Position numbers and translations under genes: made by a program
Origin: Acidobacteriota bacterium
Lineage (GTDB): Bacteria > Acidobacteriota > Vicinamibacteria > Vicinamibacterales > CAVVIG01
Reading direction: 5' to 3'
Assembly: GCA_040007095.1 (NCBI GenBank)
Contig: JBDTVS010000192.1
Coordinates: 16,552 to 80,551, forward strand
Length of the DNA stretch: 64,000 bases
In this document: positions 1,010 through 48,693 of the stretch, in pieces
How positions within the stretch are numbered: position 1 is the first letter of the stretch
Layout of the letters: each line of letters starts with the position of its first letter
Notes under the pieces: model-generated
Seen by the model: only the letters and a program-made list of their open reading frames with translations
Told to the model about the DNA's origin: nothing
Database searches by the model: none

Positions 1010-2131
1010 ATGAAGGCGGTTCTTGGTTTCGCGATGATTTGTGCGTGCGCGTCGGCGGTGGTGTGGGCGCAGGCGCCCCCCTCCCAGACACCGGCTGCGG
1101 GCGGCCAGGATGCCCCGAAGGTTGCTCCGGGAGCAGTTCCCGCCGGCTTCGACGGGTCGGCCTATGCCAAGGCCAGAGATATCCCGGCGCGGATCATCAC
1201 CTTCACGGCGGAACCGGTCTCGCTTCGGGCCGGGCAGGCTTTCACGCTCGTGTGGCACACCGAAAACCCCGCCGGCGTCACGATCGATCCGGAGCCCGGG
1301 CGGGTCACGCCGCGTGGCAGTCGACGGTTGACGCCGACGGCGACGACCACCTACACACTGACCGTCCGCGGTCCGAACAATCAACAGCTCACCAAATCGG
1401 TGACCGTCAACGTGGCTGGAACCGCTCCCGCCGCCGCCGGCACCGTCGCCAGGAAACAGGTACCGCGAACCGCCGATGGCAAACCGGATTTTTCGGGGGT
1501 CTACGGTAGCGTGGCGGGCGGAGGCGGTGCCCGTGGTGCGGCTCCCGCAGCCGCGCCCGCTGGTGCGCGTGGAGCGGGGCCAGGCGCAGGCGCTGCCCCG
1601 GCCGGTCCGGTGTTGAAGGCAGGGGCCGAGAAATTCCGAATCGTACGCGCAGCCGACGACACCGGTGCGACCTCGAACTGCATGCCGCTGGTGCCGCCCC
1701 AGTCCTGGGGTGTGCCCTATCAGTTTCAGATGCTTCAGGGCGCGAATTACGTCGCGATCTTTCACGAGTATCCGGGTACCTTTCGCATCATCCCGACCGA
1801 CGGCAGCCCGCATCCGGTGGACCCCGATCCCAGCTGGCTGGGAGACTCGGTGGGGCATTGGGAAGGCGACACACTCGTCGTCGATACGATTGGCTTCAAC
1901 GACAAAACTGAACTTCAAGGTTTCCGGCACACCGAAGGCCTGCACATGATCGAGAAATTCCGCCGGACGGATTTCGACGTCGTGCAGTACGAACTGACGA
2001 TTGAAGACCCGAATGTCTTTGAAAAGCCCTACACACTCACGCGGACCTTCGGCCTGCGCGGCGACTTGAAGCGGATCGACGAATTCATCTGCGAGAACAA
2101 TCGCGATTACCGTCCGCTCTTCGGAAAGTAG
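1010..2131 (+). CDS. secreted protein: N-terminal Ig-like beta-sandwich domain plus WEGDTLVV-type domain (uncharacterised family)
   Basis: I chose the ATG at 1010 because GGAGG lies 9 nt upstream; the track ORF starts at 956. Signal peptide MKAVLGF..VWAQA. The core motif is DSVGHWEGDTLVVDTIGFNDKTEL..IEKFRR..TIEDPNVFEKPYT..FICENN, shared with four or more paralogs in the window. Confidence 0.8.
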   Translation: MKAVLGFAMICACASAVVWAQAPPSQTPAAGGQDAPKVAPGAVPAGFDGSAYAKARDIPARIITFTAEPVSLRAGQAFTLVWHTENPAGVTIDPEPGRVTPRGSRRLTPTATTTYTLTVRGPNNQQLTKSVTVNVAGTAPAAAGTVARKQVPRTADGKPDFSGVYGSVAGGGGARGAAPAAAPAGARGAGPGAGAAPAGPVLKAGAEKFRIVRAADDTGATSNCMPLVPPQSWGVPYQFQMLQGANYVAIFHEYPGTFRIIPTDGSPHPVDPDPSWLGDSVGHWEGDTLVVDTIGFNDKTELQGFRHTEGLHMIEKFRRTDFDVVQYELTIEDPNVFEKPYTLTRTFGLRGDLKRIDEFICENNRDYRPLFGK

Positions 2132-2215
2132 CGCACGCGCTGGTGGCTTGGAGCCGCTGAAGCGATACCACTTGCCCCCGTTGTTGACCGCGATGTTTCC
2201 GGCGCGACGGGCGGG

Positions 2216-2626
2216 GTGTCGCGCATGAATGTGCCTCTCAGCAATTCATGGATCTTTCCGATCGTCCAGTCGATCCATCTCGCGGGCATCGCCTGCATGG
2301 TCGGGGCCATCGTCCTGATCGACGTTCGTGTTCTTGGTTTTGCCCCGCGCGGTCGCTCTGTCGCACAACTCGCGGGTCAATTGGCGACGTGGTCGCGTGC
2401 GGGGTTGGCCGTCATGTTCACGACCGGGCCGATGTTGTTTTTCGCGGACGCGTCCAGATACTCGAGCAATCCGGCCTTTCGCGTGAAGATGGCCCTGCTG
2501 CTTGTTGCCCTCGTCTTTCATTTCACGATCCATCGTCAGCACACACGGCTGACGGCGATCGTGTCGATCGTGCTCTGGAGCGCGGTTGTGATTGGCGGGC
2601 GCGCGATCGCCGACTTTGATGTTTGA
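2216..2626 (+). CDS. integral membrane protein, DUF6644-like
   Basis: 136-aa hydrophobic ORF with motif FPIVQSIHLAGIACMVGAIVLIDVRVLGF. A tandem paralog follows. The start could instead be the ATG at 2225. Confidence 0.7.
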   Translation: MSRMNVPLSNSWIFPIVQSIHLAGIACMVGAIVLIDVRVLGFAPRGRSVAQLAGQLATWSRAGLAVMFTTGPMLFFADASRYSSNPAFRVKMALLLVALVFHFTIHRQHTRLTAIVSIVLWSAVVIGGRAIADFDV

Positions 2627-2963
2627 GTGGCTCAGGGAGTCCACGTGGGGATATCCCATCGTCGGCGCGATCCATGTGCTCGGCCTGGCATGGTTCGGCG
2701 CGGCTGTGCTGATCGTGGATCGACAGCTCCGCGCCTGGAAGGGGATCGGCCTGGCCATCATGTTGGCGACCGGGACGCTCCTCTTCGCGTTGCAGCCGGC
2801 TCGGTACTACACCGGTGTGTCGTTCCGAATCAAGATGCTGCTGCTGCTATTCCTGGGTGTGAACGCCGCAATCGCACGGACGCGGATCGGGCTCCCACGA
2901 AGCCTCGTTCTGGCTTTATGGGTGTGTGTCATCTTCGCTTCACGAGCGATCGCGTTTTTCTAG
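2619..2963 (+). CDS. integral membrane protein, DUF6644-like (tandem paralog)
   Basis: I chose the ATG at 2619 (MFEWLRESTWGYPIVGAIHVLGLAWFGAAVLIVDRQL). It overlaps the upstream stop by 8 nt (ATGTTTGA). The track start at 2592 is a TTG extension. Confidence 0.7.
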   Translation: MFEWLRESTWGYPIVGAIHVLGLAWFGAAVLIVDRQLRAWKGIGLAIMLATGTLLFALQPARYYTGVSFRIKMLLLLFLGVNAAIARTRIGLPRSLVLALWVCVIFASRAIAFF

Positions 2964-3039
2964 AAGCAAAATGCGACCGCGAAACCGCGAAAATTAGCCT
3001 GTCTTCGAGGCGGGCAGGGCGCGTGGTAACCTTGCGGCC

Positions 3040-3360
3040 ATGCCCGCCTCGACTGGAGATCCCCGGTTGGATCGCATCGTCGGCGACGTGGTCGCTCAGG
3101 CGGTGCGCTTGGTCGCCCCGAGGCAGATCTGGTTGTTCGGATCCCACGCGCGGGGTGGGGCGACCGCGACCTCCGATGTGGATCTCGCCTTCGATGTCCC
3201 CGCCCTTGACATGGGCGTCTGGGCGGCGTTCGTCCTCGAAGCCTCCGACGAAGTGCCCGCGCTAGTCGACTTGGATCTAGTCGACATCGCGACGTGCGCG
3301 CCCGCCCTGGCCCGAGAGATCGCCACGACAGGGCCCGTGGTCTACGAGCGCCACTTGTGA
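3040..3360 (+). CDS. MNT-type nucleotidyltransferase (antitoxin-like, HI0073 type)
   Basis: Contains the minimal nucleotidyltransferase motif LFGSHARGGATATSDVDLAF (GS-x9-11-DxD). It is paired with the downstream HEPN gene. Confidence 0.8.
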   Translation: MPASTGDPRLDRIVGDVVAQAVRLVAPRQIWLFGSHARGGATATSDVDLAFDVPALDMGVWAAFVLEASDEVPALVDLDLVDIATCAPALAREIATTGPVVYERHL

Positions 3361-3740
3361 CGACGAGGGCGCTCGACAACGCCGAGGCGGCCCTGGCCAA
3401 GCTCGTCGCCTTCGTGAGCGAGCCCGCCCCATCGGAGCGAGACCGCGCGGGCGTCATTCAGGCGTTCGAATTCACGTTTGAGGTCACATGGAAGCTCCTG
3501 AAGCTCATCGCCGAGCGGGAGGGCCTCGACGGCGAGTCACCCAAGCGTGCCCTGATCGCCGGTTACAAGTTGGGCCTGCTGCAAGACGAACAGCTCTGGC
3601 TCGAGATGCTCCAGGATCGAAGCCTGACCAGCCATGTCTACCACGCCGAGCTGGCCGACCGGATCTTCGAGGCGATCAGTACTCGGTACGCGGCGGCTCT
3701 GGCCGACGCCGTCAGACGGGCCGCAATCGCGATGCGTTGA
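3357..3740 (+). CDS. HEPN / HI0074-family nucleotidyltransferase substrate-binding protein (toxin-like)
   Basis: GTG at 3357 overlaps the upstream stop (GTGA). The Rx4H HEPN motif is present in LQDRSLTSHVY. The FEFTFEVTWKLLK helix is typical of the HI0074 family. Confidence 0.75.
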   Translation: MTTRALDNAEAALAKLVAFVSEPAPSERDRAGVIQAFEFTFEVTWKLLKLIAEREGLDGESPKRALIAGYKLGLLQDEQLWLEMLQDRSLTSHVYHAELADRIFEAISTRYAAALADAVRRAAIAMR

Positions 3741-4009: not shown

Positions 4010-4987
4010 TCACCGACGGACGACGAAGTTGCCTGCTTGGCCGCAGGAGTCGGTGCACGGCGGCGGTGGGACGTAGGTGTCCTTGATCTTCTTCCGATAT
4101 TCCGGGTAGAGCGTCTCGAGATAGCCGAGGACCGCCTCGCGCGGGAGGTGGTAGAGCTTCACGAACTCGTCCACGAACGGATTCTGATCCGGCGGATAGT
4201 GGGGCACGCTGTCGCCGGGTTCCCGTCCTTCATAGCCCGTCACGCAACCCGCGCGGTAGTCGAGCGGCGTTCGCGACAGCCGAAAGCCCTTGGAGACGAT
4301 CTCGGGCTCCACGAGGTAGACCGGATCGGTGGCCACCATCAGGACCGTCATGATGTCGCCGTGGCGGAAGAAGCGCCAGTCGATCGTGGCCCGGTCGGTC
4401 AACGGCACACCGGTCTTGCGGATGAAGCCCGCCTTCACGTGGGTCGTCCGCGCGGCGAGCGCGCCGCCTTCCCAGCGGCCGACCGTGAAGCCGGCCTGCG
4501 TGTGGAGCGCGTTCTCCGATGGCCGTGGACGGCCGTCCATCCAGATGACCATCTCGTTCCAGTCCTCCCACGCGGCGATCGTGATCGACACGACGCGGTT
4601 CGTCACGGGATCGGTCTGGCTCGTCACCCGCAGACCAAAAGGACCGAGCACCATGTAGGACGCACCCCAGCCGGCGCACTGGCGTTCGACCATCGATTTC
4701 TGCGATTCGTCGTAGGAGAGCGCCCGGATGCGGGCCTCGTCGGTCAGCGCGAGCCCGAGGTAGTCCACGGGCACCGAGTCGTTCTGCACGTCTTCGCTGC
4801 CGAGGGGCGCCCACGATCCGAGCATGTCGAACTGTGCCGACGCTCTGCCAGCGGTGAGGAGCACGAGCACGACGGCGACGGCCGTGCGGCAGCTGTTTCG
4901 AATTAGAGATTCGGCGATGAATCTCCCGAAGCGCGGCGCCCGCGTGGCAAGACGCGAGGCGCGAGAATTTACCAGGTTGATGAGCAT
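4010..4987 (-). CDS. secreted hypothetical protein, divergent member of the WEGDTLVV-type family
   Basis: The real part of the 580-aa track ORF starts at MLINLVNS (ATG 4987) and has a signal/TM segment AVAVVLVLLTAGRASAQ. Motifs are GRWEGGAL..VKAGFIRKTGVPLTDRATI..RFF..ATDPVYLVEP. The upstream portion of the track ORF is Arg-rich shadow frame. Confidence 0.7.
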   Translation of the reverse strand: MLINLVNSRASRLATRAPRFGRFIAESLIRNSCRTAVAVVLVLLTAGRASAQFDMLGSWAPLGSEDVQNDSVPVDYLGLALTDEARIRALSYDESQKSMVERQCAGWGASYMVLGPFGLRVTSQTDPVTNRVVSITIAAWEDWNEMVIWMDGRPRPSENALHTQAGFTVGRWEGGALAARTTHVKAGFIRKTGVPLTDRATIDWRFFRHGDIMTVLMVATDPVYLVEPEIVSKGFRLSRTPLDYRAGCVTGYEGREPGDSVPHYPPDQNPFVDEFVKLYHLPREAVLGYLETLYPEYRKKIKDTYVPPPPCTDSCGQAGNFVVRR

Positions 4988-5712
4988 GGTGTCGGATCCC
5001 ACTTCGAGCCGTCCGGCTCTTTCTTGAAGTGCGGGCTCACGATATACGGTCCCGTGAGGTACACAGGGTCGTCGACGGTGGTGGTGACGAGCAGCAGCCG
5101 GCCGTCGTCGGCGAGCGGTGCGATATCGAAGTTCTCCGTGACCGTCGCACGCTCGCTGTAAGGTACGCCGTTCTTCCGCAAGTAGCCGGCGCGCACGTTC
5201 GACGTGACGACGCGCAGGCTGCCGCCGCCGTCGGGTCCGTTGGCGCGTTCCCACGTCGCGCTCGACTCGCCCTGCCAACTCGGCGCCGATGCGGCCGCCC
5301 GGACCGAGAAATGGAACAGGCGCGTCTGCGTGCCCGCGTCGGTGTCGATGCGCAGCGTGTCGGCATCCTGCCAGGCGATGTGAAGGCGACCAGGCACACT
5401 CATGATCGTGCCCGCGCCATAGGACTTGCACTGGTTGCCCGCGCGATCGTCCGCGGCCGGATCCCAGTTGTTGATGAACGTTAGAGCGGCCGGCGAAACC
5501 GGAATGCGGCGATACTCGCCTTTGGCGGGCGTCACCATCCGGTAGCGCCAGTTCTCGGTCACGTACGAGACCCAGTAGCCCGTGAGGTCGATCGGCGCCG
5601 CCTCTCGCGCCGGCCTCGCTGGACCGCCGCCCCGCTGTTGCGCCCACACGGCCACCGATCCGCTGAAGGTCAGCAGAACGAGTGCGAGAACTGCGGGCGA
5701 CCGCGCTCTCAC
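4969..5712 (-). CDS. secreted hypothetical protein, paralog of 4010-4987
   Basis: GTG at 5712 overlaps the upstream stop (GTGA). Signal peptide VRARSPAVLALVLLTFSGSVAVWAQQ. Motifs are VRAGYLRKNGVPYSERATVTENF..VDDPVYLTGPY. Confidence 0.7.
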   Translation of the reverse strand: MRARSPAVLALVLLTFSGSVAVWAQQRGGGPARPAREAAPIDLTGYWVSYVTENWRYRMVTPAKGEYRRIPVSPAALTFINNWDPAADDRAGNQCKSYGAGTIMSVPGRLHIAWQDADTLRIDTDAGTQTRLFHFSVRAAASAPSWQGESSATWERANGPDGGGSLRVVTSNVRAGYLRKNGVPYSERATVTENFDIAPLADDGRLLLVTTTVDDPVYLTGPYIVSPHFKKEPDGSKWDPTPCSSTW

Positions 5713-6710
5713 GGCTTCTCCTTGGCGAGGCTCCGGTAGATCGCCTCCACAAAACGGTCCGTCGTCCATGCGCCGCCCTGGTTGCCGTAGCGTCCGACGT
5801 ATCCCTTCGCCGGCTGGGCAGCCTTGACCTCGGTGAGCGATCGTCCTGCTTTGATCAGATCGCGGACCCGATCGCGGATGATTGTCACCATGTCCCGGTA
5901 CTCGACGACGTCGTATTGATCGCAGAGGCGGCCGTGCCCGGGGACGACGATGGTGCCGGCCTCGCGAGTCACGACAGGCACCGAGGGGACGGCCAAATCG
6001 ACGAGGCGATTGAGCGCCGCAATCTCGCCCTGGATGCTGCCGCCGCGTTCGACGTCGATGACCGGAAACTGTCGTGTGTCGAGCACGTCGCCAGCGACGA
6101 CGACATCGGAGCGTCTGAAGAACGCGAGCACGTCGCTGTCGGTGTGCGCGGCCGGCTGGTGCAGCACCTCGATCGCCTCACCGTTCAGGTACATGGACTT
6201 TCGCGAATAGTGAAACACCTCGGTGGGCCAGCCGCCCGCCGGGGACTTGGCCATGTGCCGCAGCACGCCTTCGGCCGAGAGAATCGGAGCCACTGCATCT
6301 GCGGCGTTTGGTGCGCCGCCGCCGATGCCGCCGGCAAAGAGTTTTTCTCCGGCCTTCGCGAGCGCTTCGTTGCCGCCCACATGATCGGCGTCTGGTCCGG
6401 TGTCGATCACGTAACGAATGGGCTTCGACGAGATGCGTTTGATCGCGGCCAACACGGCCGGGGCGCTGGCCGCCGATCCGGCGTCCACCACCACGATGCC
6501 GTCGTCGCCCACCTGCACGCCGACGTTTGCCCCGGCGCCGGCGATGACGAAGAACGAGGGCCGAACCTCCAGGATTTCCAGGCCGTCGGACGGGACTCCC
6601 GCGGCCTGCGGCGCGGCGGCGCTCAGCGGCACGAGGCGATGTGGCAGCAGGAGTGTCGTACAGAGGGCTGCCATGGCGGTCACCCGCGCGCGGCGGCATC
6701 GTTCAGACAA
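5709..6710 (-). CDS. MBL-fold metallo-hydrolase with non-canonical metal motif
   Basis: MBL-like layout: IVVVDAGS.., DTGPDADHVGGN in place of THxHxDHxGG, then HTDSD and VPGHG. It carries an N-terminal signal-like segment. An alternative ATG start lies at 6674. Confidence 0.75.
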   Translation of the reverse strand: MSERCRRARVTAMAALCTTLLLPHRLVPLSAAAPQAAGVPSDGLEILEVRPSFFVIAGAGANVGVQVGDDGIVVVDAGSAASAPAVLAAIKRISSKPIRYVIDTGPDADHVGGNEALAKAGEKLFAGGIGGGAPNAADAVAPILSAEGVLRHMAKSPAGGWPTEVFHYSRKSMYLNGEAIEVLHQPAAHTDSDVLAFFRRSDVVVAGDVLDTRQFPVIDVERGGSIQGEIAALNRLVDLAVPSVPVVTREAGTIVVPGHGRLCDQYDVVEYRDMVTIIRDRVRDLIKAGRSLTEVKAAQPAKGYVGRYGNQGGAWTTDRFVEAIYRSLAKEKP

Positions 6711-7086
6711 GTCTGAGCCTCATTCTGCGCTGTGGCATCGCGGAGGGTAGCACACAATCTAGCAGGGCAGCCTTGATGCTCGTGCGGGCGAGTGAGCGGT
6801 GCCGAGGAATTCGTTCGGGGCTTCTCCGCGCGCACCACGGAGGGCGACTGTCGTCCCCACGTCTGCCTTCGCCGCCGCCTCTCGCATCCTCCCGGGGAAC
6901 GAAGACAAGGATGCCGCCTGCGGTCATCAAGATTGTATAAATTTCAGCTTGACCGTCGAGTCGGTGGCGTCTATGGTAGGGCCATCGAGACGAGCGGTTG
7001 TTCTCGCCGACTCCGATTCTTCTGGTGATTGCGCCGCGCCTGAGACCCCTGCCAGTACAACAAAGAAAAAGAAGTGGGGTGGACCA

Positions 7087-11865: not shown

Positions 11866-12723
11866 CTACTTGATGTGGTGGGTCGATCGCTCGTTCTCGT
11901 TGCAGATGAATTCGATCATCTCCTGGTCCACCATGAGGCGGTGGTTCACGCGCACCGTGAAGGGCTTCGTGTACGCCTTGGGATCGTCGATCGTGATGTC
12001 AATCTCGAGTGTGCCGAAATTCGGACGGCGGAACCGCTCGGTCATCTTGAGTGATTCAGTGTAAGGGCTGCCGTTGACGTCCAGCCAGCCGGCCTTCTCG
12101 TCGCCGCGAAAATTCGTGGTCTCGACGACCAGCGTATCGCCCTCGAACCAGCCCCGCGAGTATCCGAACCACCACGGCACCGGATCGTTGTTCGGGGCGG
12201 GGCGCCCATCCAGATAAATATAGCGAAGACCGTAGTTCGATTCGTAGGTAATCAGCGCCAGATTCTTGGTCTGGACGATCTGCCGGGGCTGCGGGTGATT
12301 GTGGTACTGCATGAGGCCGATCGGAAGGCACCAGACATCCGGGTTGTCCTTGCTGTTGTCGGCCATTCGCTTCTTCTTCAATTCGGCAGCCCAGGGCTGC
12401 AGCGGCAGCGCGTATCCTCGGCCGGCCACCTCGAAGAATTGGGACACGGGAAGCGCGTCCGGGGCGGGAGCGGGAGCCGCAGGGGCGGCGCCAGCGCCGG
12501 GTCCTGCGCCACGACCCCGCCCGCCAGCGGGCCTGAGCTCCCAGATGCCCGAGAAATCCACCTTGCCATCAGCTGTGCGCGGCGTCGGGCCGTCGAGAAT
12601 GGGTTTGCCGTCCGGGGTTCGCGGAACTCCAGGCGTCGGGGACGAGGGCCACTGTGCGCCCATCGAAACGGATGTTGCGGCGGCTATCGCGAGCGCGACT
12701 ATCATTCGAACCAGTATCTTCAT
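11866..12723 (-). CDS. secreted WEGDTLVV-type family protein
   Basis: Signal peptide MKILVRMIVALAIAAATSVSMGAQ. Motifs are GWFEGDTLVVETTNFRGDEKAGWLD..MTERFRR..TIDDPKAYTKPFT..FICNENERS. It lies 140 nt downstream of the TBDR gene on the same strand. Confidence 0.85.
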   Translation of the reverse strand: MKILVRMIVALAIAAATSVSMGAQWPSSPTPGVPRTPDGKPILDGPTPRTADGKVDFSGIWELRPAGGRGRGAGPGAGAAPAAPAPAPDALPVSQFFEVAGRGYALPLQPWAAELKKKRMADNSKDNPDVWCLPIGLMQYHNHPQPRQIVQTKNLALITYESNYGLRYIYLDGRPAPNNDPVPWWFGYSRGWFEGDTLVVETTNFRGDEKAGWLDVNGSPYTESLKMTERFRRPNFGTLEIDITIDDPKAYTKPFTVRVNHRLMVDQEMIEFICNENERSTHHIK

Positions 12724-12863
12724 TCAGATCTCCTCGCCAGAGTCTCACGGCAGCCCGTTGGTCCCTCACAACGAAAACTGCTCGCGCCTTCTGGCCGGAT
12801 CAGAAAGCCGTGATCAGGTCGAACGATTATAGGCGGGGTCGAAGCCGGGGCCAGACCTCCGGC

Positions 12864-15800: not shown

Positions 15801-16478
15801 GCTGATCGACAGATTGCCGGGATTGAGCTGCCCCGACGGCGCCACGGCGCCGGTCACGCCCGCCATGATGATCGAGTCGGACTGCATGGTCGTGACCGGA
15901 ATCACGCCCGGTTGGATGGCGAGCAGGTCCGTGAAGCTCCGGCCGTTGAGCGACAGGGTCGTCATCGTCGCGGCCGCCACGACCTCGCCGATCTGCGTCG
16001 AGGTGGTTTCGACGTGCACGGAGGTGGCCGTGACGGTGACCGTCTCGCTCTGCCCGCCCACTTCGAGGGTCGCGTCGATCTGCAGTCGGCTGTTGATATC
16101 CACTGCCACCCCTGTGCGCTTCAACGGCTTGAAGCCATCGAGCGTGACGGTCAGGTCGTAGCGCCCCACCGGGACGTTCGGAAACGAGTACACGCCCTGT
16201 CCGTCTGTCACCACGGTGGTTTGGTTGCCGAGCGTCGTGTTCGTAAGCGTGACGGTGGCGCCTGGAATCACGGCGGCGCTCGCGTCCTTGACCGTGCCGC
16301 TCAAGCTGCCGCCGGCCTGCGCGTAGCTGGTCGTTGACCATCCGATGCACGCGATCGCGACAATCGCTGACGAGCCGAGCCACCGGGCGCCATTGCGGAG
16401 ATGCGTCACACGCGCTCGCGGGGCGGCGCCGCCGCCGAGCGCCTTGACGAGCCGATGGAACCAACAGAGTCCCGACAT
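12864..16478 (-). CDS. TonB-dependent receptor (about 1200-aa subtype) with carboxypeptidase-regulatory-like domain
   Basis: ATG at 16478 with AGGAG 8 nt upstream. Contains LSGTVKDASAAVIPGATVTLTN..GVYSFPNVPVGRYDLTVT. The C-terminus is ..ALKYSF. Confidence 0.9.
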   Translation of the reverse strand: MSGLCWFHRLVKALGGGAAPRARVTHLRNGARWLGSSAIVAIACIGWSTTSYAQAGGSLSGTVKDASAAVIPGATVTLTNTTLGNQTTVVTDGQGVYSFPNVPVGRYDLTVTLDGFKPLKRTGVAVDINSRLQIDATLEVGGQSETVTVTATSVHVETTSTQIGEVVAAATMTTLSLNGRSFTDLLAIQPGVIPVTTMQSDSIIMAGVTGAVAPSGQLNPGNLSISGQRESANSFLVNGSDVQERMNGGTSVVPNLDSVDQFRVLTSNFDPQYGNYNGGIVSVITKSGSDVFHGSAFDFVRNTALDKKNYFSPERAEFKQQQPGGTVGGPVKKGKVFFFADYQGTRTTQGIETGLIPVPTLAERAGNFSLDPSALNGTVNGPYFASLLSQRLGYPVSAGEPYYVPGCTSSAACVLPNAMIPTRAWSAPAQKLLQYIPTPNTGAGAFSTGAFPQTVRDDKGSIRIDGNSRLGLLSAYYFVDDYRLDNPYPGAQGGANVPGFDALTIGRAQLLAVGSNNVLGSGLVNEFHFSYMRNINDIGAPKGGLGVPIASQGFVTGPGTPGIVVQAPQFEGVENVAFEKFVFGVTTTNVNQANNTYHFSDNVSKVVGTHTFRGGGEIQYAQVDIDPNAQFNGTFSFQGTETGSDFADFLLGAPSGYIQAAGTPFFIRNRYAGAFGQDSWRVRPNVTLNYGLRYDFMEPWYDKYNQIQTFIPGRQSVVYPTGPAGFVYPGDDGIPRTLSPARHKFSPRVGIAYVPSFSDGVLKTLFGSDGQSSIRSSFGIFYTAIPGLSAGIMYSIPPYGENYLSPAPPLFDTPFITAADGTINGQPFPHTPAPLDASPSKPGTSVDWSRLLPINGDPYYYHDNDVPFTRNYMLSIDRQLGMGLVMTLSYVGSQGRNILVVQPTNPGDPALCLSVSQESQVAPGSATCGPFSENGVFTRADGTVINGTRPFAPNFGSITAQRTIGRSLYNAFEADLRYTGPHAGFLLGYTLAKSMDTSSFIGEQINPFDPEATWAPSAFDVRHNFIASYNVDLPFERVFHRQNGWTTGWAIAGITRLSSGFPVTLYNDTDSSLLGTFGNGVNNHGLDTPDYTPGCDLKINHDPAKGDAFNTACFSIPPDGQLGNAPRRFFYGPGIINTDLTLLKRVALGKGQAVQFRLEMFNVFNTAQFYGAGSVDGNVSSSTFGQIVRAAPPRLVQLALKYSF

Positions 16479-21040: not shown

Positions 21041-21070
21041 ATGACATGATCGCCCTCCTGGAATCGAGCA

Positions 21071-22339: not shown

Positions 22340-22753
22340 CTATTCATCGACACCGCGGAAACGGACTGTGTGTCCGTCCTGGTAGGTGATCGCGACCAGA
22401 AGCCCAACCGGGCTCTTGCCGTCAGCGGCGGGTGTGCACGTGACCGTGATTGGGTCACCGGGGCGCAGCGCATTCGGTCCGTCTTTGAGACCGAACTTCG
22501 CGATGCTGGTCACACTGCCGCCCACGAACGACCACTCGGTTGCCGTGCCGTCCGTGTTCTTGACTTCCAGTTTCATCGACGAGTGGGGATTCACGAACCT
22601 GAATGCCTTGAACTCCCCACTCACCTTCGCTTCCTTACCCAATGCGTACACGCCCGCGAGGGAATGATGCGCCTGCAAGGAAGCGCTGGCCAGGACCAAC
22701 CCGCACAGAACGACGCATCGCACAGTCCACTTCGTCGTAAGCCACTTCGTCAT
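22340..22753 (-). CDS. small secreted protein, DUF6152-like (paralog of 470-853)
   Basis: Signal peptide ..LVLASASLQA|HHS. Motifs are FRFVNPHSSMKLEVKNTDGTATEW..RPGDPITV. A GAGGAGG RBS is present. Confidence 0.8.
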   Translation of the reverse strand: MTKWLTTKWTVRCVVLCGLVLASASLQAHHSLAGVYALGKEAKVSGEFKAFRFVNPHSSMKLEVKNTDGTATEWSFVGGSVTSIAKFGLKDGPNALRPGDPITVTCTPAADGKSPVGLLVAITYQDGHTVRFRGVDE

Positions 22754-22942: not shown

Positions 22943-24691
22943 CTAGTGCCGAATCTGCGTGGCGGCCGCTTCGGTCTCGAAACTCGTCTCACAGTTGCCC
23001 CGCTCTCGCAGCAGGCCGGCGTTGGGATTCGCGCTGGGCCGTACCACTCGTGTCGGGTACACGTACGGCTCCACCAGCACTTCAGGGTCTTCGACCGTGA
23101 CGTCATACAAGAGCACGTTGCCCTGACGCGTGAATTTCTCCACGACGTGCATCTTTTCGGAGTGGAAGAAGCCGCCGCGGCCCAGCCACGTCGTATCGAT
23201 GAACCCGATGGCGTCGAGCACCAGTGTGTCCCCCTCCCAGTGTCCGACGGTATCCCCCAGATACATCAGTTCGAACTTCGCGTTGGGGCCGTGCTGGCGG
23301 CCATCGGTCGGGATCACACGAAATTCGGGATAGCCGCCGCCGGCATCACCGCCCGAATACAGGAACGTGATGTCCTTGTCTGACTGGAAAATGCGCCGGG
23401 GCGGGCCCTGCCGCGGGATGCCCAGCGGCTGGCAGGTCATCACCGGGTCGAACTTGTTCGTCCACATGTCCAGTTCCTGAACCTTGTCCCAGTGCTCCGG
23501 CTTGTACATGGGACGATTCAGGTTCCCGAACCGCGAGGGTGAGTAGAGCTCGAAATCTTCCGTCTGATTGGTTTGCCGGCTGCAGTTGGGACCCTGCGTC
23601 GGACCGCAGCGGCGCCCGCCGCCCGTCATGTAGTTGCCAATCCAGTCGCTGAATTGATAGTTGCCCGTCAGGTCGGGATGCGCGCCCAGCCGGGGCGTGG
23701 GTATCGACTTGTCCACGGGAGGTTCGCTCCTGGCAAACACGCCTTTCGGGAGCTGCCCGGTGGGCTTGATCGCCGCCTTCACGCTCGCCGGCACGGGCGC
23801 CACCACATACACATTGCCCGTTTCCGTCACGTCCGTCGTCAGGTCGCGGACGACCGTGTTGCCGCGGCGCTCGACCAGCTTGCCGGCGTACAGCACACCG
23901 ATCTTGTTCAGCTTGCTGTTCCAGTCCTGATAGTTGGAGTAGGTGAATTCCGTCGTCGTCGAGCCCTGGGTGACGACGACTTTCTCCGTCATGTATTTCG
24001 CATCGAGAGTGGCTGTCGCAGTCGCCCCCGGAATGGCCGGAAGCGGGAACGTCAGGACCGGCTTTGCGCCCTCCCAGGCGAGGGACGTCTGGCCCACCTT
24101 CGCGAGACCGTCGGCGAACAGCGTGCCCGGGTTGGCCCCCAACCAGAATGTTTCGGTGGTTCCGGCCAGTGCGGACTTGGCCGCACCCTGGGGACTGGCC
24201 CAGATGCGGACGAGCCGCTCCTGCACGGCCGAGGGCATGGGCGTGGCCTTCCCCTTGGTCGGACCGATCTCCGCACCTCGCGTGTCTTCGTTCCAGGCGT
24301 ACAGCCCGCTGACCACCTCGATGTTCGAGGCCGTTTGTCCGTTCGCCCGCGTGCAGGTGTACTGAGTGCGCTGACTGAAGGTCTGGAAGTTGGTGCTCTC
24401 ACGATATTTCGTGAGCGTGCACGGCTGCCCGTCGACCTGAATCGTGCCCTTGCCCTGATATTCGAGCGTCGCGACCATGTCGCGTTCGTCATGGCCCTTC
24501 AGCATGCCCATGCCCCACATCCAGTGGAAGATCACGGATCTCAGGTCTTTGGCGTTCGGTGCCGGTGTGTAGGGTTCAGCCGTGCCTGCGTTTGGATTCG
24601 GATTCTGTGCACCGGCCGCCAACGGCGTGGCGAGCGCCAGGACGATCCCGAGTGCGACCCTCATCCCACTCATCCTTCCACGAACATCCAT
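22943..24691 (-). CDS. secreted 582-aa protein: novel N-terminal region plus C-terminal WEGDTLVV-type domain
   Basis: I chose the ATG at 24691 because GGAGG lies 6 nt upstream. Signal peptide ..ALATPLAAGAQ. The C-terminal core is PDLTGNY..MTCQPLGIPRQGPP..IPTDGRQH..GDTVGHWEGDTLVLDAIGF..VVEKFTR..TVEDPEVLVEPY. Confidence 0.8.
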   Translation of the reverse strand: MDVRGRMSGMRVALGIVLALATPLAAGAQNPNPNAGTAEPYTPAPNAKDLRSVIFHWMWGMGMLKGHDERDMVATLEYQGKGTIQVDGQPCTLTKYRESTNFQTFSQRTQYTCTRANGQTASNIEVVSGLYAWNEDTRGAEIGPTKGKATPMPSAVQERLVRIWASPQGAAKSALAGTTETFWLGANPGTLFADGLAKVGQTSLAWEGAKPVLTFPLPAIPGATATATLDAKYMTEKVVVTQGSTTTEFTYSNYQDWNSKLNKIGVLYAGKLVERRGNTVVRDLTTDVTETGNVYVVAPVPASVKAAIKPTGQLPKGVFARSEPPVDKSIPTPRLGAHPDLTGNYQFSDWIGNYMTGGGRRCGPTQGPNCSRQTNQTEDFELYSPSRFGNLNRPMYKPEHWDKVQELDMWTNKFDPVMTCQPLGIPRQGPPRRIFQSDKDITFLYSGGDAGGGYPEFRVIPTDGRQHGPNAKFELMYLGDTVGHWEGDTLVLDAIGFIDTTWLGRGGFFHSEKMHVVEKFTRQGNVLLYDVTVEDPEVLVEPYVYPTRVVRPSANPNAGLLRERGNCETSFETEAAATQIRH

Positions 24692-38784: not shown

Positions 38785-39035
38785 GCGTCTCCTCTGATGG
38801 TTAGGACGTCTAACCCGTACACAACTGTCTCAGACCGAGCGGATGGTAGACCTTACGACGAGGCCTTGGAAAGGGAGTTCGGCGCCACACCGAACGCGTC
38901 TCGTCTCCCCAATATCGGTAGTTGACTCCTTGGCGAGCAGCGGTGAAGATCTTGGACTCATATCCACGCTGCTCAGGCACTCTTCTTAGCAGACGCGTGT
39001 AGGCATTCTTTGCAGTTTTTTTGGAGATTTTGCGT

Positions 39036-42026
<2,991 letters not shown>

Positions 42027-42048
42027 GAGAGGTTGCATTGACTAATCC

Positions 42049-42149: not shown

Positions 42150-43976
42150 GTGTTGATGCGATACGTGGTCGTTCGTGGTCTCGCGCTGGCGATGTTGTTC
42201 GGTGTCTGCGGCCGCGCTGTGGCGCAAGACGGCGCGCAGGCGTTCCGGGCGAATTGTGCGTCGTGCCACGGCACGGCCGACGGTCCCCAACCCGCCAACG
42301 CCCCCAGCGTCGCGGCGCTGCGGCAGTTCAGTCCGGAGGCGATTCTCAACGCACTGCTGAACGGCAAGATGCGGATCCAGGGAACGCCGTTGTCCGACGC
42401 CGACCGGCGCGCCGTCGCCGAGTTTCTCGGCGGGCGCGCGCTGCGCAGCGTTCCGGTGGGGTCGTCCGTCGTGGCCTGTAAGTCGTCGCCGCCGTTTCGC
42501 GGGTCTGTCGCGGCCAGCGATTGGAACGGGTGGGGCAACGGCATCGAAAATACACGTTTCGCCAGAAACGGCGGCCTGACCGCTGGAGACCTGCCGAAGC
42601 TGACATTGAAGTGGGCCTTCGGCTACGCTGACGTGACGTCCGCCCGCGCCCAGCCCTCGCTCGTCGGCAACCGCCTGTTCGTCGCCAGCGACAGCGGCGA
42701 GGTCGATGCGCTCGACCCGAGGACCGGATGCGCCTACTGGTCGTTCCGCGCGGAAGCCACCGTACGCACGGCGCTTCTCGTGGCGCCGTACCGGCTGCCG
42801 GCGGGCGCCGTCGGATGGGCGGTGTTCTTCGGCGATCTGAAGGCGAACGCGTACGCGCTCGACGCGACGAGCGGCCGTCCCGTCTGGATCCGCAAGCTCG
42901 ACGACCATCCCTATGCCGCGATCACCGGGACGCCGACCTACCACGACGGTCGTGTGTTCGTGCCGGTGCAAGGGCTCAATGAGGAAGTTCAAGGTGGACG
43001 ATCTCAGTACGAATGCTGCACGTTCCGCGGCAGCCTCAGTGCGCTCGACGCTGGCACCGGGAAGGTCGTCTGGAAGACCTACACCGTCGGCGAGCGGCAA
43101 TCGCGTGGCACGAATGCCGCGGGCAAACCACAGTGGGGCCCCGCTGGCGGCGGCATCTGGTCGGCGCCGACCATCGACGTTCGTCGCGGTGCGGTGTATG
43201 TCGGCACCGGTAATTCGTACGCCGACCCCTCGCAGCCGATGACCGATGCCGTCATCGCGCTCGACATCAAGAGCGGCAAGGTGCGGTGGTTTCGGCAGTT
43301 GATCCCGAACGACACCTGGACGCTCGGCTGCCGTGCGAAGAACCCGGACAACCCGAACTGTCCGGATACGCTCGGTCCTGACTTCGATATCTCGGCGTCG
43401 CCCGCGCTGGTGAAGGCCGGCGGGCGCGATCTGTTGGTGCTGCCACAGAAATCGGGCATGGCCTACGCGCTCGATCCCGACAAGCAGGGCGCACCCGTGT
43501 GGCAGTTCCGATTCGGTCAGGGCAGCGGCCGCGGCGGTCAGTGGGGCAGCGCGACCGACGGGCGTCAGGCGTACTTCGGCGCCAACGGCAATGGCCCCGC
43601 AGCGGGCGGGATCGTCGCTGTCGATCTCGCCACTGGCGAACGCGCCTGGCAGCGCGCGGCGGAGGCACCGCTGTGCGGCGCACCCAGCCGCGAGTGCGGC
43701 GCTGCGCAAGGCGCCGCTGTTACCGCCATTCCCGGCGCGGTGCTGTCCGGGTCGCAAGATGGCGGCCTGCGCGCGTACGCAGCCGAAGACGGCAAGCTGC
43801 TGTGGCAGTTCGACACGAACCGTGAATTCGCCACCGTGAACGGGGTCAAGGCCAGAGGCGGCAGCATGGACGGACCGGGTGCCATCGTCGCCGGCGGACT
43901 GCTGTTCGTGAACTCGGGGTACGGCGGCATCGCCGGTCGCCCGGGCAACGTCCTTCTCGTGTTCGGTGTGGACTGA
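42150..43976 (+). CDS. PQQ-type beta-propeller quinohemoprotein dehydrogenase (polyvinyl-alcohol-dehydrogenase-like) with N-terminal cytochrome c domain
   Basis: Signal peptide, CASCH heme motif, then repeated propeller blades (..LDPRTGCAYWSF.., ..ALDATSGRPVWIR.., ..ALDIKSGKVRWF.., ..AYAAEDGKLLWQF..). The start may be the ATG at 42156. Confidence 0.8.
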   Translation: MLMRYVVVRGLALAMLFGVCGRAVAQDGAQAFRANCASCHGTADGPQPANAPSVAALRQFSPEAILNALLNGKMRIQGTPLSDADRRAVAEFLGGRALRSVPVGSSVVACKSSPPFRGSVAASDWNGWGNGIENTRFARNGGLTAGDLPKLTLKWAFGYADVTSARAQPSLVGNRLFVASDSGEVDALDPRTGCAYWSFRAEATVRTALLVAPYRLPAGAVGWAVFFGDLKANAYALDATSGRPVWIRKLDDHPYAAITGTPTYHDGRVFVPVQGLNEEVQGGRSQYECCTFRGSLSALDAGTGKVVWKTYTVGERQSRGTNAAGKPQWGPAGGGIWSAPTIDVRRGAVYVGTGNSYADPSQPMTDAVIALDIKSGKVRWFRQLIPNDTWTLGCRAKNPDNPNCPDTLGPDFDISASPALVKAGGRDLLVLPQKSGMAYALDPDKQGAPVWQFRFGQGSGRGGQWGSATDGRQAYFGANGNGPAAGGIVAVDLATGERAWQRAAEAPLCGAPSRECGAAQGAAVTAIPGAVLSGSQDGGLRAYAAEDGKLLWQFDTNREFATVNGVKARGGSMDGPGAIVAGGLLFVNSGYGGIAGRPGNVLLVFGVD

Positions 43977-43998
43977 AGGGCGGATCTCACGGTCCCGT

Positions 43999-44220: not shown

Positions 44221-45741
44221 ATGAGAGATGCACGCGAGGATGACCGGGAGGCGGCACGCGTCACGACGCCGATCGGGCGACGTGCCTTGTTGCGGGGGGC
44301 GATGTCGGCCGCGGGCGTTCTGGGACTTGGAACGATAATCCCGCGCCAGGCGGCGGCGCAGCGCGGGGCCGGTGCCTCGAACGCCGCTCAGGCCGACAGC
44401 ACGCTCGCGCTCGCTCGATTCCTCAACAACGCCGCCTACCGGGACTTTCCGCCGAAGGCGATCGAGCACGCGAAGATGATCCTCGCCAGCACGTTCGCGA
44501 GTGCGGCGGCGGGATCCGTGATCGACTCGGCCCGGATCCTGCGTCAACTGGCGAAGGAGCAGGGCGGTAAGCCGGAAGCCACGATCTGGTTCGACGGCAC
44601 GAAGCTTCCTGCGGTCGAGGCCGCGCGCGTGAATGCCGTACTCAGCGACGCGGCAGCGTCCGACGACAGCGACATCCGCAACACCGCCCATGAAGGCACG
44701 ACACTCGCCTCTGTAGGTCTCGCCATCGCCGAGCGCACCGGCGCCACGGGGCAGGATCTGCTCGGCGCGATGATTCTCGGGTACGAGGCGGCGGGCCGGA
44801 TCGGCGAAGCGCGCAATGGCGGGCGCGGCGGTGTACACGCCTCGCAGATCGTCGCGTTCGCCGGCGCCGCAGCTGCGGCGAAGCTCCTGAAGCTCACCGA
44901 CGAGCAAATGGCGCAAGCGCTCGGGATCGTCGCCATCACCATGGGCGGACTGGCGACAGGGACGAACAGCTGGGCCCGGGAGTACATGGGCGCCAACGCG
45001 GCGGCCTGCGGCGTCAATGCGGCACTGGCTGCCAGCCGAGGCTACACCGTGAACGAGGACATGCTCGGAAGCCGCGGGGGATTCGTAGACGTGTTCGGCG
45101 GCGGCGCCAAGGCCGTCGAGCGCCTCACCGCGGATCTCGGCAAGGAGTGGGACATCGTCGATTTTCTGGCGATCAAGCTGTGGCCGGGCGCCCATCCGTT
45201 CTCCGGCACTGTGGAAGCCGCGATGAATGCCGCGCGGCAGGCTGATCTTGCTCCCGACAACGTGGCGAAGATTCTCGTGGCCGGCCAGAACCGAACGTCC
45301 ATTCAAGGAAGCCGGCGCCCCGGCAACCTGGCGGAAGCCATTCACAGCCTGTCGTACTACGTTGCGGCGGCAGTCGCGGACAAGGACTTCACCTGGGCGC
45401 ATGCGAGCGAGGCGAAGTTCCACGATCCGAGAATCACCAGGCTCATGGATCTGGTGGACGTCGATCCGGCGCCGCCAGCGGTGAAGTACGCCTGGAGCTG
45501 GGGAGGCACCGTCACCATCGTCGCGACGTCCGGCGCGCGGTTCACGAGCACGGTGGATGCGCCGCGGGGCTCGGGCCCGCGCGGCATCGCGTGGAGCGAT
45601 GTCGAAGCCAAGTACCGCGCCTTGATGCCTGAGTCGAAGCTGGCCGGGCGGCGCATCGACGACATCCTCGCCGTGATTCATGGTTTCGAGCGTGCGAAGA
45701 ACGTGTCGGAGTTGACCCGCCTGCTCGCGCCGGGACGCTGA
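44221..45741 (+). CDS. MmgE/PrpD-family protein with twin-arginine (Tat) signal
   Basis: The N-terminus IGRRALLRGAMSAAGVLGLGTIIPRQAAAQ is a Tat-type RR motif. It is followed by the PrpD-like segment LARFLNNAAYRDFPPKAIEHAKMILASTFASAAAGS. Confidence 0.8.
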   Translation: MRDAREDDREAARVTTPIGRRALLRGAMSAAGVLGLGTIIPRQAAAQRGAGASNAAQADSTLALARFLNNAAYRDFPPKAIEHAKMILASTFASAAAGSVIDSARILRQLAKEQGGKPEATIWFDGTKLPAVEAARVNAVLSDAAASDDSDIRNTAHEGTTLASVGLAIAERTGATGQDLLGAMILGYEAAGRIGEARNGGRGGVHASQIVAFAGAAAAAKLLKLTDEQMAQALGIVAITMGGLATGTNSWAREYMGANAAACGVNAALAASRGYTVNEDMLGSRGGFVDVFGGGAKAVERLTADLGKEWDIVDFLAIKLWPGAHPFSGTVEAAMNAARQADLAPDNVAKILVAGQNRTSIQGSRRPGNLAEAIHSLSYYVAAAVADKDFTWAHASEAKFHDPRITRLMDLVDVDPAPPAVKYAWSWGGTVTIVATSGARFTSTVDAPRGSGPRGIAWSDVEAKYRALMPESKLAGRRIDDILAVIHGFERAKNVSELTRLLAPGR

Positions 45742-47042: not shown

Positions 47043-47075
47043 AGAGACCGACGTGAGGTTCCGAACACTCGCGGC

Positions 47076-47852
47076 CTACTTGATGTGAGGGCCCATGTGC
47101 GGCGTGGACTTCTCGTTCTCGTTGCAGACGAACTCGAACAGCTCCGTATCCGGCATCAGACGAGCGTTGGTGGTCGCCGTCCACGGCTTGGTGTAGTACG
47201 TCGGGTCGTTGATGGTGATCTCGATCTCGAGCCGCCCGACGTTCGGGCGGCGAAATCGCTCGGTCACCGTCAGCTTGCTGCTCGCCGGCAGACCGCCGTG
47301 ATCGAGCCACTGCTTGCCGTTCAGGCCCCGCGTCTCGACCACCAGCGTGTCGCCTTCCCAGCGACCCTTCGAGTAGCCCATCCAACTCGGGTTCAGATCG
47401 TCCACCCACTCGCGCTCATCGAGGAACACCTGCCGCCAGAGGTTGAAGGCTTCGTAGACGATGACGACCAGCCGGTCGGTCTGGACGATCTTGAACGGCA
47501 CCGGCGCCATGTCGATTTTGGGAACGCCTTGCGGCAGGCAGTGTGCGTCCGGTTCTTCGTAGCCGAGCAGCCCGGTGGCACGCGCCGCATGAATCTTCCG
47601 CGCTTCGCCGGTCATCGGCACGTTCTCGAGCCCCAGATCCGCGGCGAGGTTCTGGAAGTATTTGTAGTTCGAGGAGTAGATGCCGGAGAGATCGGGGTGT
47701 CCCGATGGCGTCCTTGGCGTCGCCGCCGACATGTTCGGCTTGCCGTCTGGTCCAGGCGGAACCCCGTCTTTCGGGAGATTCCGCCACTGAGCGCCCGCTG
47801 GACCCGCAACCAGCAGGAGCGCGATCGTGAGCGTCGCCGCGCGGTTCTTCAT
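47076..47852 (-). CDS. secreted WEGDTLVV-type family protein
   Basis: Signal peptide MKNRAATLTIALLLVAGPAGAQ. Motifs are AHCLPQGVP..GRWEGDTLVVETRGLNGKQWLD..VTERFRR..TINDPTYYTKPWT..FVCNENEKS. Confidence 0.85.
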   Translation of the reverse strand: MKNRAATLTIALLLVAGPAGAQWRNLPKDGVPPGPDGKPNMSAATPRTPSGHPDLSGIYSSNYKYFQNLAADLGLENVPMTGEARKIHAARATGLLGYEEPDAHCLPQGVPKIDMAPVPFKIVQTDRLVVIVYEAFNLWRQVFLDEREWVDDLNPSWMGYSKGRWEGDTLVVETRGLNGKQWLDHGGLPASSKLTVTERFRRPNVGRLEIEITINDPTYYTKPWTATTNARLMPDTELFEFVCNENEKSTPHMGPHIK

Positions 47853-47916
47853 GGAACGAGAGTGTAGCAGACCCTGGACCAGTGGCCTGTTCCGGTGGTT
47901 GTACTCCAGCGCGCGG

Positions 47917-48693
47917 CTATTTACCCACCAGGTGCTCGACGTCCCTGTTGTTCTCCTGGCAGATGTATTCGATCAACTCCCCCTGCAGGAGCGACGGATG
48001 CGTCGTGAACGACCATGGCCGCGAGAAGGTTTTTGGATCCTCGATCGTGTGCTCGATGTCGAGGTGGCCAAAGTCCGGCCGGCGGATGCGTTCGGTGACC
48101 TTCATCTCCGTGGAATGGGGAACGCCGGCTGCGTCGAGCCAGGAGATGTCGTTCTGCCCGATGGTCTCGACGACCAGCGTGTCCCCATCCCAGCGGCCGA
48201 TGGAGTCGCCGAGCCAGGTGAATTCGACTCTCGGATCGTGTCCACGCCCGTCCATGAAGATCTGCCGCCAGACGTGCGCTCCGCCTTCGTACAGGATCGC
48301 CATCAGCTTCGGTGTCTGCACGATGGTCCACGGATAGGGCGTGGTGCTCATGCGCGGCACGCCCGGCGGGAGGCATCGGGCTTCCGGATCTTCCCGGCCG
48401 AGGTTTTCCTTGTACCGCTTGTAGACCGCTTCTGCCGCGGGCAGCATCGGTACCTCCACTCCCGATCCGACGAGATCGACATTCTGGCGAATGGCGTTCG
48501 GTTGCCAGTTGCCTGATAGGTCGGGCTTTCCGTCCGGCGTTCGCGGTGTCGGGCCGGCCGGCGGCCACGTTGGCTTGGTCGCTGCCGCACCTGCCGCGCT
48601 CGGGGCCTGGCCGGCGGTGGCTACATACGCGGTCCCTTGCAGAGTAACCGCCGCGGCAATCACGGCGATCACGTATTGAGCATGTGTCTTCAT
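47917..48693 (-). CDS. secreted WEGDTLVV-type family protein (tandem paralog)
   Basis: Motifs are ARCLPPGVP..GRWDGDTLVVETIGQNDISWLD..VTERIRR..TIEDPKTFSRPWS..YICQENNRD. Its start lies 1 nt after the upstream gene's stop. Confidence 0.85.
   Translation of the reverse strand: MKTHAQYVIAVIAAAVTLQGTAYVATAGQAPSAAGAAATKPTWPPAGPTPRTPDGKPDLSGNWQPNAIRQNVDLVGSGVEVPMLPAAEAVYKRYKENLGREDPEARCLPPGVPRMSTTPYPWTIVQTPKLMAILYEGGAHVWRQIFMDGRGHDPRVEFTWLGDSIGRWDGDTLVVETIGQNDISWLDAAGVPHSTEMKVTERIRRPDFGHLDIEHTIEDPKTFSRPWSFTTHPSLLQGELIEYICQENNRDVEHLVGK

Follow-up and report, generated by a model that had tools for sequence, protein, structure and literature searches.

A secreted WEGDTLVV protein family with a predicted calycin-like barrel and a recurrent DUF6152 partner in an acidobacterial genome

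A 64,000-nt stretch of an Acidobacteriota bacterium genome (assembly GCA_040007095.1, contig JBDTVS010000192.1, positions 16,552 to 80,551 of the forward strand; hereafter the window) encodes seven secreted proteins that share a core marked by the motif WEGDTLVV. We refer to their open reading frames (ORFs) as A to G. A sequence-only reading of this DNA had proposed that these proteins work as uptake partners of the TonB-dependent receptors (TBDRs) encoded nearby, and the locus raises the question of what kind of protein the family is and which genes, if any, it travels with. We examined the window together with 80 genome loci that were retrieved and selected around family genes. We place the family as a new branch, so far without a name, within a known fold class; its core is best read as a predicted calycin/FABP-like beta-barrel, and it has a newly recognised partner, DUF6152. 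A general association with TBDRs was not supported.

The majority of the 80 loci came from Bryobacterales/Solibacteraceae, Terriglobia, and Vicinamibacterales. The remainder belonged to Gammaproteobacteria (SAR86, Nevskiaceae, and Pseudohongiellaceae among them), Novosphingobium, Bordetella, and metagenome-assembled genomes (MAGs) of Gemmatimonadota and Acidimicrobiia. Labels beginning with L denote loci and those beginning with P denote homologous proteins.

Family membership and predicted fold

All seven ORFs were found where the sequence-only reading had placed them, on the strands it had assigned (Table 1), and they form one paralogous family. The division into five canonical members and two divergent ones (B and C) was upheld by pairwise BLASTP and by a family hidden Markov model (HMM) trained on 95 unrelated representatives together with D, F, and G, with E-values calculated at Z = 1e6. 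BLASTP E-values were 9e-55 for D/F and 6e-55 for F/G, 1e-23 to 6e-29 for A against D, F, and G, and about 1e-18 to 1e-20 for E against A and G. B and C matched each other at 2e-8 and the canonical members at just 1e-3 to 1e-4. They are true but distant members of the family, because the HMM recovered both (B at 8.5e-8 and C at 7.2e-10). A six-frame scan of the whole window with the family HMM returned these seven and no further member.

The motifs quoted for the family (PD[LF]SGxW, CxPxGxP, GxSxGxWEGDTLVV, ERFRR, DP, and CxEN) were confirmed. So were the signal peptides, as each of the seven proteins starts with a hydrophobic segment ending at an AxA-type site; no canonical lipobox Cys was present in any of these signal peptides. 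The Cys pair had been described as a property of the canonical five, where it indeed occurs, but it is not restricted to them and is invariant in all seven. G57 (numbering of F here and below) is likewise invariant across the window members, where residue 59 is either W or Y. D, F, and many homologues have, at the N-terminus of the mature protein, a Pro-rich element repeated in tandem, PRTxDGKPxL[ST], immediately ahead of the GxW strand (leader consensus QWLNYPTPGIPRTADGKPNLSAPAPRTADGKPDLSGxW).

No characterised family name had been attached to these proteins, and our profile checks in Pfam, NCBIfam, and PDB sequences agreed in giving no family match. At E ≤ 1, neither Pfam nor NCBIfam matched the barrel domains of the seven, the sole match being a weak Ig-like one in the N-terminal domain of A, and no Pfam model covered the barrel region among 150 representatives either. 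A single-sequence homologue search nonetheless gave at least 7,500 matches, all labelled 'hypothetical protein' and none with a Pfam domain among those listed. A profile made from five paralogues reached 19,720 clusters (50% identity) at E ≤ 1e-3 and 11,945 at E ≤ 1e-10. The closest homologues of the window proteins came from Vicinamibacterales and other Acidobacteriota MAGs; look-ups of F and of C, the latter from two alternative starts, gave no existing entry. Some proteins of 450–530 aa contained two copies of the domain, and among the 150 representatives 8 had an N-terminal CarboxypepD_reg domain and 9 a C-terminal DUF3471.

A sequence-profile search of the PDB with the barrel region found nothing significant; the best match, CRBP1 at E of about 0.9, aligned query positions 59–87 with CRBP1 residues 2–32, the N-terminal GxW region. 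We modelled F with AlphaFold2 (AF2). The model had a predicted local distance difference test score (pLDDT) of 74.7, a predicted template modelling score (pTM) of 0.72, and pLDDT around 90 over much of the barrel region. It placed a strand at 57–61 (GxW), helices at 82–92 and 102–105, and then eight strands. A Foldseek search of the PDB with this model returned CRBP1, CRABP2, and FABP at the top (probability 1.0, template modelling score 0.5–0.6 on the target, E about 3e-3, root-mean-square deviation about 7 Å), followed by streptavidin and nitrophorin. These top matches are ligand binders, in keeping with the binding-type role that had been thought plausible for the family. The best reading of the family core (~210 aa) is a predicted calycin/FABP-like beta-barrel.

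Conservation across 169 diverse family domains was consistent with this prediction for the calycin N-terminal G-x-W feature, with G57 in 91% and W59 (or Y) in 82% of domains. The two Cys were also strongly conserved (C105 93%, C243 91%), and this conservation in an exported protein suggests that C105 and C243 probably form a periplasmic disulfide. Further conserved positions were R140, D145, the GxSxGxWxGDTLVV hairpin, G187, E198, R199, R202, T213, D216-P217, P223, and E240.

DUF6152 and TonB-dependent receptors as neighbours

The genes beside A and E that had been described as DUF6152-like are members of Pfam PF19649 and score above its gathering cutoff of 27 bits (Table 1). The sequence-only reading noted these neighbours but left them unweighted; in our data they are the top neighbour signal. 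In the first three orthologue loci that we examined, a DUF6152 gene was present within 8 kb every time, and the unannotated genes beside it were further family members. Two 'DUF6152' proteins of 340–371 aa turned out to be DUF6152-barrel fusions. A Pfam scan of 132 immediate neighbours of 70 family genes/loci recovered DUF6152 most often, with 16 occurrences, whereas every other family had at most three. In 19/80 loci, DUF6152 was no more than 500 bp from the focal family gene, and its density was 2.57 per 10 kb at 0–500 bp vs 0.16 per 10 kb at 3–10 kb (ratio 15.7, P = 2e-13).

The arrangement of the two genes was also constrained. Among 53 DUF6152 domains from all loci and the window, seven were fused N-terminal to the family domain (in distinct proteins), 38 were within 300 bp of a family gene on the same strand (26 upstream, 12 downstream), three were within 300 bp on the opposite strand, three were 300–1,000 bp away, and two were more than 1 kb away, shares that are conditioned on a sample of loci chosen around family genes. 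Clustering was also seen among the family paralogues themselves, at about 4 times the background level. In L005, a DUF6152-barrel fusion gene (12100–13212) has directly upstream of it, and on the strand that it occupies, a gene for a 131-aa secreted protein with the GxW-type motifs GSWIGTWG and TGTWKS (13226–13621, minus strand). This protein may be a further small calycin-like member of the cluster.

An AF2 model of the window DUF6152 protein encoded at 470–853 (pLDDT 84.8) had a small barrel and a short helix. Foldseek matched it to oligonucleotide/oligosaccharide-binding (OB) folds, namely SSB, Rim1, and the LysRS N-domain, at E of about 2e-4, and a sequence-profile search of the PDB found nothing significant. 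DUF6152 is, by prediction, a small secreted OB-fold protein. Its conservation across the 53 sequences centred on A|HH (96%) right after the hydrophobic signal segment, NPH (94–98%), W..E (91%), and several Gly. Because A|HH follows that segment, mature DUF6152 should begin with His-His; pLDDT in the model was <50 at residues 27–29. We infer from these motifs that DUF6152 may hold a metal or metal-chelate site using its N-terminal His. No relevant paper on DUF6152 was found in the library searched, and nothing relevant was found there on DUF3471, DUF1552/DUF1592, or Vicinamibacter with TonB or lipocalin.

The gene pair directly downstream of A is of the DUF6644/DUF2214 type and encodes small membrane proteins whose first transmembrane helix contains a conserved His. 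A DUF6644 pair follows DUF6152 in L064 (Novosphingobium, 7073–8076) too, and the pair was also present in L078 (3196–4254), making three places in total. A small membrane-protein pair beside a protein with an N-terminal His recalls CopC-CopD, and we tentatively consider the DUF6644/DUF2214 pair a third, inner-membrane component of the module.

For the TBDRs, the sequence-only reading had called the gene context strongly non-random and based its uptake-partner proposal on this. Under fair nulls, we found no significant enrichment, and the neighbourhood statistics showed no clear excess of TBDRs near family genes beyond that expected from TBDR density. Selecting window genes by third-position GC content (the G+C content of the window is 63–66%), we counted 42, of which six were TBDR-type, and 10 of the 36 other genes abut a TBDR. 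Gene-rank distances to the nearest TBDR were 8, 3, 2, 1, 3, 3, and 2 for A to G. Random sets of seven non-TBDR genes from the window did as well or better, whether scored by mean rank (P = 0.53), by how many genes were adjacent to a TBDR (P = 0.92), by how many lay within two genes of one (P = 0.75), or by the mean distance in bp (P = 0.30).

The wider sample gave a similar picture. TBDR-type (OMP_b-brl_4) genes were 3/132 immediate neighbours across the 70 loci. At 0–2.5 kb from a family gene, 52 long ORFs included seven OMP_b-brl_4 and three TonB_dep_Rec matches, and at 5–10 kb 45 long ORFs included five TonB_dep_Rec and three OMP_b-brl_4 matches. TBDRs made up about 13–19% of long genes near vs 11–18% far (Fisher P = 0.4–1.0), with a near/far rate ratio of 1.3–3 that is set by the overlap assumed between the two Pfam families. 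In a gene-slot test, using a multi-seed jackhmmer TBDR set and a 650-aa length filter, 8/19 TBDRs abutted a module gene vs 5.2 expected (P = 0.11). A null of uniform placement for TBDR distance gave P = 0.0025 but was rejected: it is an unfair comparison, since genes lie end to end along real DNA and every neighbour therefore falls within about 300 bp. Among D-type relatives, P0122 and P0237 had no TBDR within 8 kb (P0121, from the same search, is 88% identical to D), and D and F orthologues in other genomes were mostly without a TBDR nearby.

These counts depended on how TBDRs were recognised. Our first TBDR HMM, seeded with the six window TBDRs, missed classical Plug/TonB_dep_Rec receptors in L058, L064, and L073 and was replaced by Pfam batch scans and the multi-seed jackhmmer search. 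The first HMM also mis-called the CarboxypepD_reg-barrel fusions of L069 (9602–10627) and L072 (9479–10633) as 'TBDR within 200 bp'. These fusions, like P0328, P0336, and P0369, have an N-terminal domain that is common to acidobacterial TBDRs, which makes them a trap for automated neighbourhood statistics. Overall, a general association between TBDRs and the family is not supported by these data, which contain a weak trend at most, and the TBDR adjacency in the window is best read as a consequence of how densely TBDRs occur in this acidobacterial genome. The absence of a SusD-like partner, remarked on earlier, extends to the family itself: the seven members have no SusD Pfam match and no lipobox, and their predicted fold is a barrel.

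Family members and other genes of the window

The coordinates of the family members and their recurrent neighbours are in Table 1.

Table 1 Family members, DUF6152 genes, and DUF6644/DUF2214-type pair in the window
Feature	Coordinates	Strand	Description
A	1010..2131	+	Signal peptide, Ig-like N-domain, low-complexity linker, barrel domain; family HMM E 1.4e-67
B	4010..4987	-	Divergent; ~90-aa C-terminal extension; family HMM E 8.5e-8; last gene of MBL-C-B run
C	4969..5712	-	Divergent; family HMM E 7.2e-10; Cys pair and GxW kept
D	11866..12723	-	Canonical; family HMM E 1e-106; sole member immediately adjacent to a TBDR
E	22943..24691	-	~330-aa N-terminal region, then barrel domain at ~residues 338–592; family HMM E 6.7e-51
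F	47076..47852	-	Canonical; family HMM E 8e-104; member modelled with AF2
G	47917..48693	-	Canonical; family HMM E 2e-97; abuts stop of Abhydrolase_10 gene 48695–50155
DUF6152 gene	470..853	+	156 bp upstream of A, which lies directly downstream; PF19649 E 1.6e-27, 95.9 bits; mature N-terminus HHS; NPH
DUF6152 gene	22340..22753	-	189 bp downstream of E, same strand; PF19649 E 3.6e-17, 62.7 bits; AHHS and NPH kept
DUF6644/DUF2214-type pair	2216-2626 and 2592-2963	+	Directly downstream of A; DUF6644 E 1.1e-9

Two members had been credited with extra N-terminal domains, and both additions stand. The Ig-like domain of A has a weak Pfam He_PIG match at residues 75–135 and was seen again in P0381 and two L084 ORFs. 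The ~330-aa region of E is novel in that it has no Pfam match; residues 1–330 gave one weak BLAST match (E 1e-3, in L082) in a set of about 500 proteins and 89 loci. We considered whether this region could be a degenerate duplicate of the family domain and found no support for it (domain i-E-value 12). E had also been taken as the end of a minus-strand cluster, but the DUF6152 gene comes after it, with no terminator-like site between the two.

B and C follow a metallo-beta-lactamase (MBL)-fold gene (5709–6710), which matches Pfam Lactamase_B, in an MBL-C-B run; the start of C overlaps the stop of the MBL-fold gene, and B and C overlap by 19 nt. The C-terminal extension of B also occurred in family ORFs of L039, L020, and L013. 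D, which had been placed after a TBDR gene in one operon, is on the same strand as that gene (12864–16580) and 140 bp downstream of it, with no terminator-like site in the gap; the upstream gene matches OMP_b-brl_4 (E 3.9e-170). F and G do follow a hydrolase gene (Abhydrolase_10, 5e-67) in a hydrolase-G-F run.

The F orthologues P0037 and P0053 (about 80% identical) are at the end of a DUF1592-DUF1552-ankyrin operon, so that an F orthologue is the last gene of such an operon in two other lineages. The window itself has a DUF1592/1588/1587/1585/1595 (PSD) protein with a cytochrome c domain at 60860–63409 (+) and a DUF1552 (HXXSHH) protein at 63444–63998 (+), 12 kb from F, and related loci are L001, L087, and L088. 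The window is also rich in exported or catabolic enzymes (42150–43976 on the plus strand, 56967–58460 and 58694–60616 on the minus strand, and 44221–45741 on the plus strand), a set comprising a PQQ dehydrogenase with a cytochrome c domain, a triple-SnoaL_4 protein, a tannase/feruloyl esterase, and MmgE/PrpD. The PQQ dehydrogenase sits just after the TBDR gene 39021–42026, and PQQ dehydrogenases recur near family genes in other loci.

Three further features lie between the family genes. An overlapping Polbeta-type nucleotidyltransferase/NTase_sub_bind (HEPN-like) pair at 3040–3360 and 3294–3740 (+), between the A cluster and the B/C operon, has the usual look of an MNT-HEPN toxin-antitoxin pair. 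The ORF at 17289–18668 (+) has a TIR_2 match that runs from residue 1 of the protein but only from profile position 29; its true start may therefore be further upstream, and the product may be a defence or signalling protein. The ORF at 19919–22135 (-) has NHL-propeller matches in its C-terminal part only and overlaps a plus-strand Cys/Met PLP enzyme at 21071–22264 (412 bits); because of the overlap with this strong ORF, the start of the NHL gene must be internal, at about 21000 or lower.

Proposed role, alternatives, and known systems

We favour, with moderate confidence, a periplasmic ligand-binding barrel that is often paired with a probably metal-binding OB-fold partner, DUF6152, and not with a TBDR. 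The barrel would surround a small ligand, either within the periplasm or extracellularly. This ligand may be anionic because the conserved Arg are on strand positions facing one side. The paralogues are spread over diverse catabolic and transport operons, and each would probably be tuned to a different ligand. DUF6152 could bind metal via His1, His2, and the NPH histidine, with a conserved Glu also present. The OB-fold protein may hold or present a metal or cofactor and the barrel an organic ligand, and the two most likely act as one unit because their genes are usually side by side on one strand and sometimes fused. Orphan paralogues would be stand-alone binders in diverse operons, such as the MBL-C-B and Abhydrolase_10-G-F runs. 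A bolder and doubtful extension of this idea is an undescribed two-protein periplasmic system, in which the His-His OB-fold would capture a metal or chelate and hand it to, or act on, the ligand held by the WEGDTLVV barrel, with a TBDR and DUF6644 providing the uptake route in some lineages. Barrel and DUF6152 occur together in Acidobacteriota and Proteobacteria, and barrel members are also present in Gemmatimonadota and Actinomycetota MAGs.

Several observations count against the paired binding barrel, and some of them feed the alternatives. Besides the sampling of loci around family genes, 121/169 family genes (about 70%) are without an adjacent DUF6152, so the partner is not obligatory, and 48/169 (about 28%) have one. 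No residue separated DUF6152-adjacent from orphan copies among the 169 domains, where we saw just a K/R preference at one position. The barrel model is of moderate confidence with a modest Foldseek E (3e-3), and both Cys are in model segments with pLDDT <50 (95–115 and 242–245). The conserved charged residues might just as well belong to an active site, and we consider it possible, though unlikely, that the barrel has an enzymatic role (for instance as a hydratase, isomerase, cyclase, or metal-dependent oxidase together with DUF6152), with the conserved Arg/Asp/Glu cluster as its active site. R140, D145, E198, R199, R202, D216, and E240 are conserved at 79–96%, hydrolase genes often run in the same direction beside family genes (MBL-C-B, Abhydrolase_10-G-F, and an Abhydrolase gene after the family gene in L004), and the N-terminal His of the partner is reminiscent of copper sites in oxidative enzymes. 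Gly, Pro, Asp, and Trp in turns, however, account for many of the conserved positions, as is usual for structural motifs, and the structural neighbours are binders. The tandem clustering at high local density (162 family ORFs over about 1.36 Mb of locus sequence) also speaks against an enzyme, and the diversity of the neighbours (115 Pfam families among 132) fits binding modules better.

The proposal that TBDRs have in this family a partner for binding or processing substrates, in the periplasm or at the surface and in a SusD-like role, appears improbable to us. In its favour, D follows a TBDR closely, TBDR counts tend to be higher close to family genes, by about 1.5- to 2-fold, with the excess of TBDRs beside module genes in the gene-slot test pointing the same way, and some members share the CarboxypepD_reg N-domain with acidobacterial TBDRs. 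P0006, an F orthologue in L089 that is 89% identical, directly follows a TBDR, and co-directional clusters were seen in L058 (Gammaproteobacteria; TBDR-DUF6152-barrel-barrel) and L064 (Novosphingobium; barrel-barrel-TBDR-DUF6152-DUF6644-DUF6644). L073 has a TBDR, an aminotransferase, and a DUF6152-barrel fusion in one cluster; these three proteobacterial loci were picked by eye and are examples, not statistics. A TBDR link may exist in a subset of cases (L058, L064, L089, and D). As a general role, however, it is opposed by the lack of significant enrichment under any fair null, the few TBDRs among immediate neighbours, with most copies in unrelated contexts, the other D and F relatives without a TBDR within 8–10 kb, and the absence of a lipobox or SusD-type Pfam match in the seven. 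Least probable in our view is a general envelope or stress protein of lipocalin/YceI-like type for lipid or isoprenoid handling, with DUF6152 adjacency reflecting co-expansion. The calycin-like fold, the fact that most copies have no DUF6152 neighbour, and the clustering of paralogues would suit it, but the seven distinct DUF6152-barrel fusions and the 16-fold same-strand enrichment within 500 bp are hard to square with co-expansion alone.

The family comprises ~20,000 clusters without a Pfam, NCBIfam, or PDB representative, with all homologues called 'hypothetical', and often has several copies per few kilobases in dominant soil bacteria (Vicinamibacterales and Bryobacterales). It now has a predicted calycin/FABP-like fold, a defining motif set, and a reproducible partner, and the pairing gives two uncharacterised families one joint hypothesis. 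Our results also remove a TBDR-accessory label that could otherwise spread through acidobacterial annotation, because TBDR density makes almost any gene look TBDR-linked.

Compared with SusC/SusD systems, the likeness is confined to a few loci with the module clustered with a TBDR; the family differs in having no SusD fold or Pfam match, no lipoprotein signal, and no general TBDR adjacency. The FABP/CRBP/CRABP proteins are the best structural matches, and the family model has a helical insert between strand A and the remaining barrel. The conserved internal Arg of the family are candidates for contacting an anionic ligand, as in that group. Strand A of D reads VDFSGIW, close to the corresponding CRBP1 motif, which we take to be VDFTGYW. 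In contrast to FABP and other intracellular lipid-binding proteins, the family is bacterial, secreted, and massively paralogous, with a Cys pair, about 210 aa vs about 135 aa, a longer insert, and the duplicated PRTxDGKPxLS leader; it has no significant sequence similarity to them and no Pfam Lipocalin (PF00061) match at E ≤ 1.

In function, the nearest parallels would be periplasmic calycin-type binders such as ZinT and Blc and, with their N-terminal His, metal proteins such as CopC and YcnI. The DUF6152 partners, as PF19649 members predicted to be small secreted OB folds, resemble BOF/YgiW and CusF, although to our knowledge a mature His-His N-terminus with an NPH signature is no described feature of BOF or CusF. 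They are like CopC/YcnI in that the mature protein is predicted to start with His right after the signal-peptide site and that a DUF6644/DUF2214 pair sometimes adjoins. CopC and YcnI folds are beta-sandwiches, whereas DUF6152 is a predicted OB fold without sequence similarity to them, and the DUF6644 link was seen in three places only. ZinT/YodA, Blc, and YceI are, like the family, exported calycin-like barrels, though the seven members have no Pfam match to ZinT, Lipocalin, or YceI. ZinT is a barrel with a His-rich N-terminus that works with a partner protein, an arrangement analogous to the barrel plus His-His DUF6152, with the His-rich element here carried on a separate OB-fold protein.

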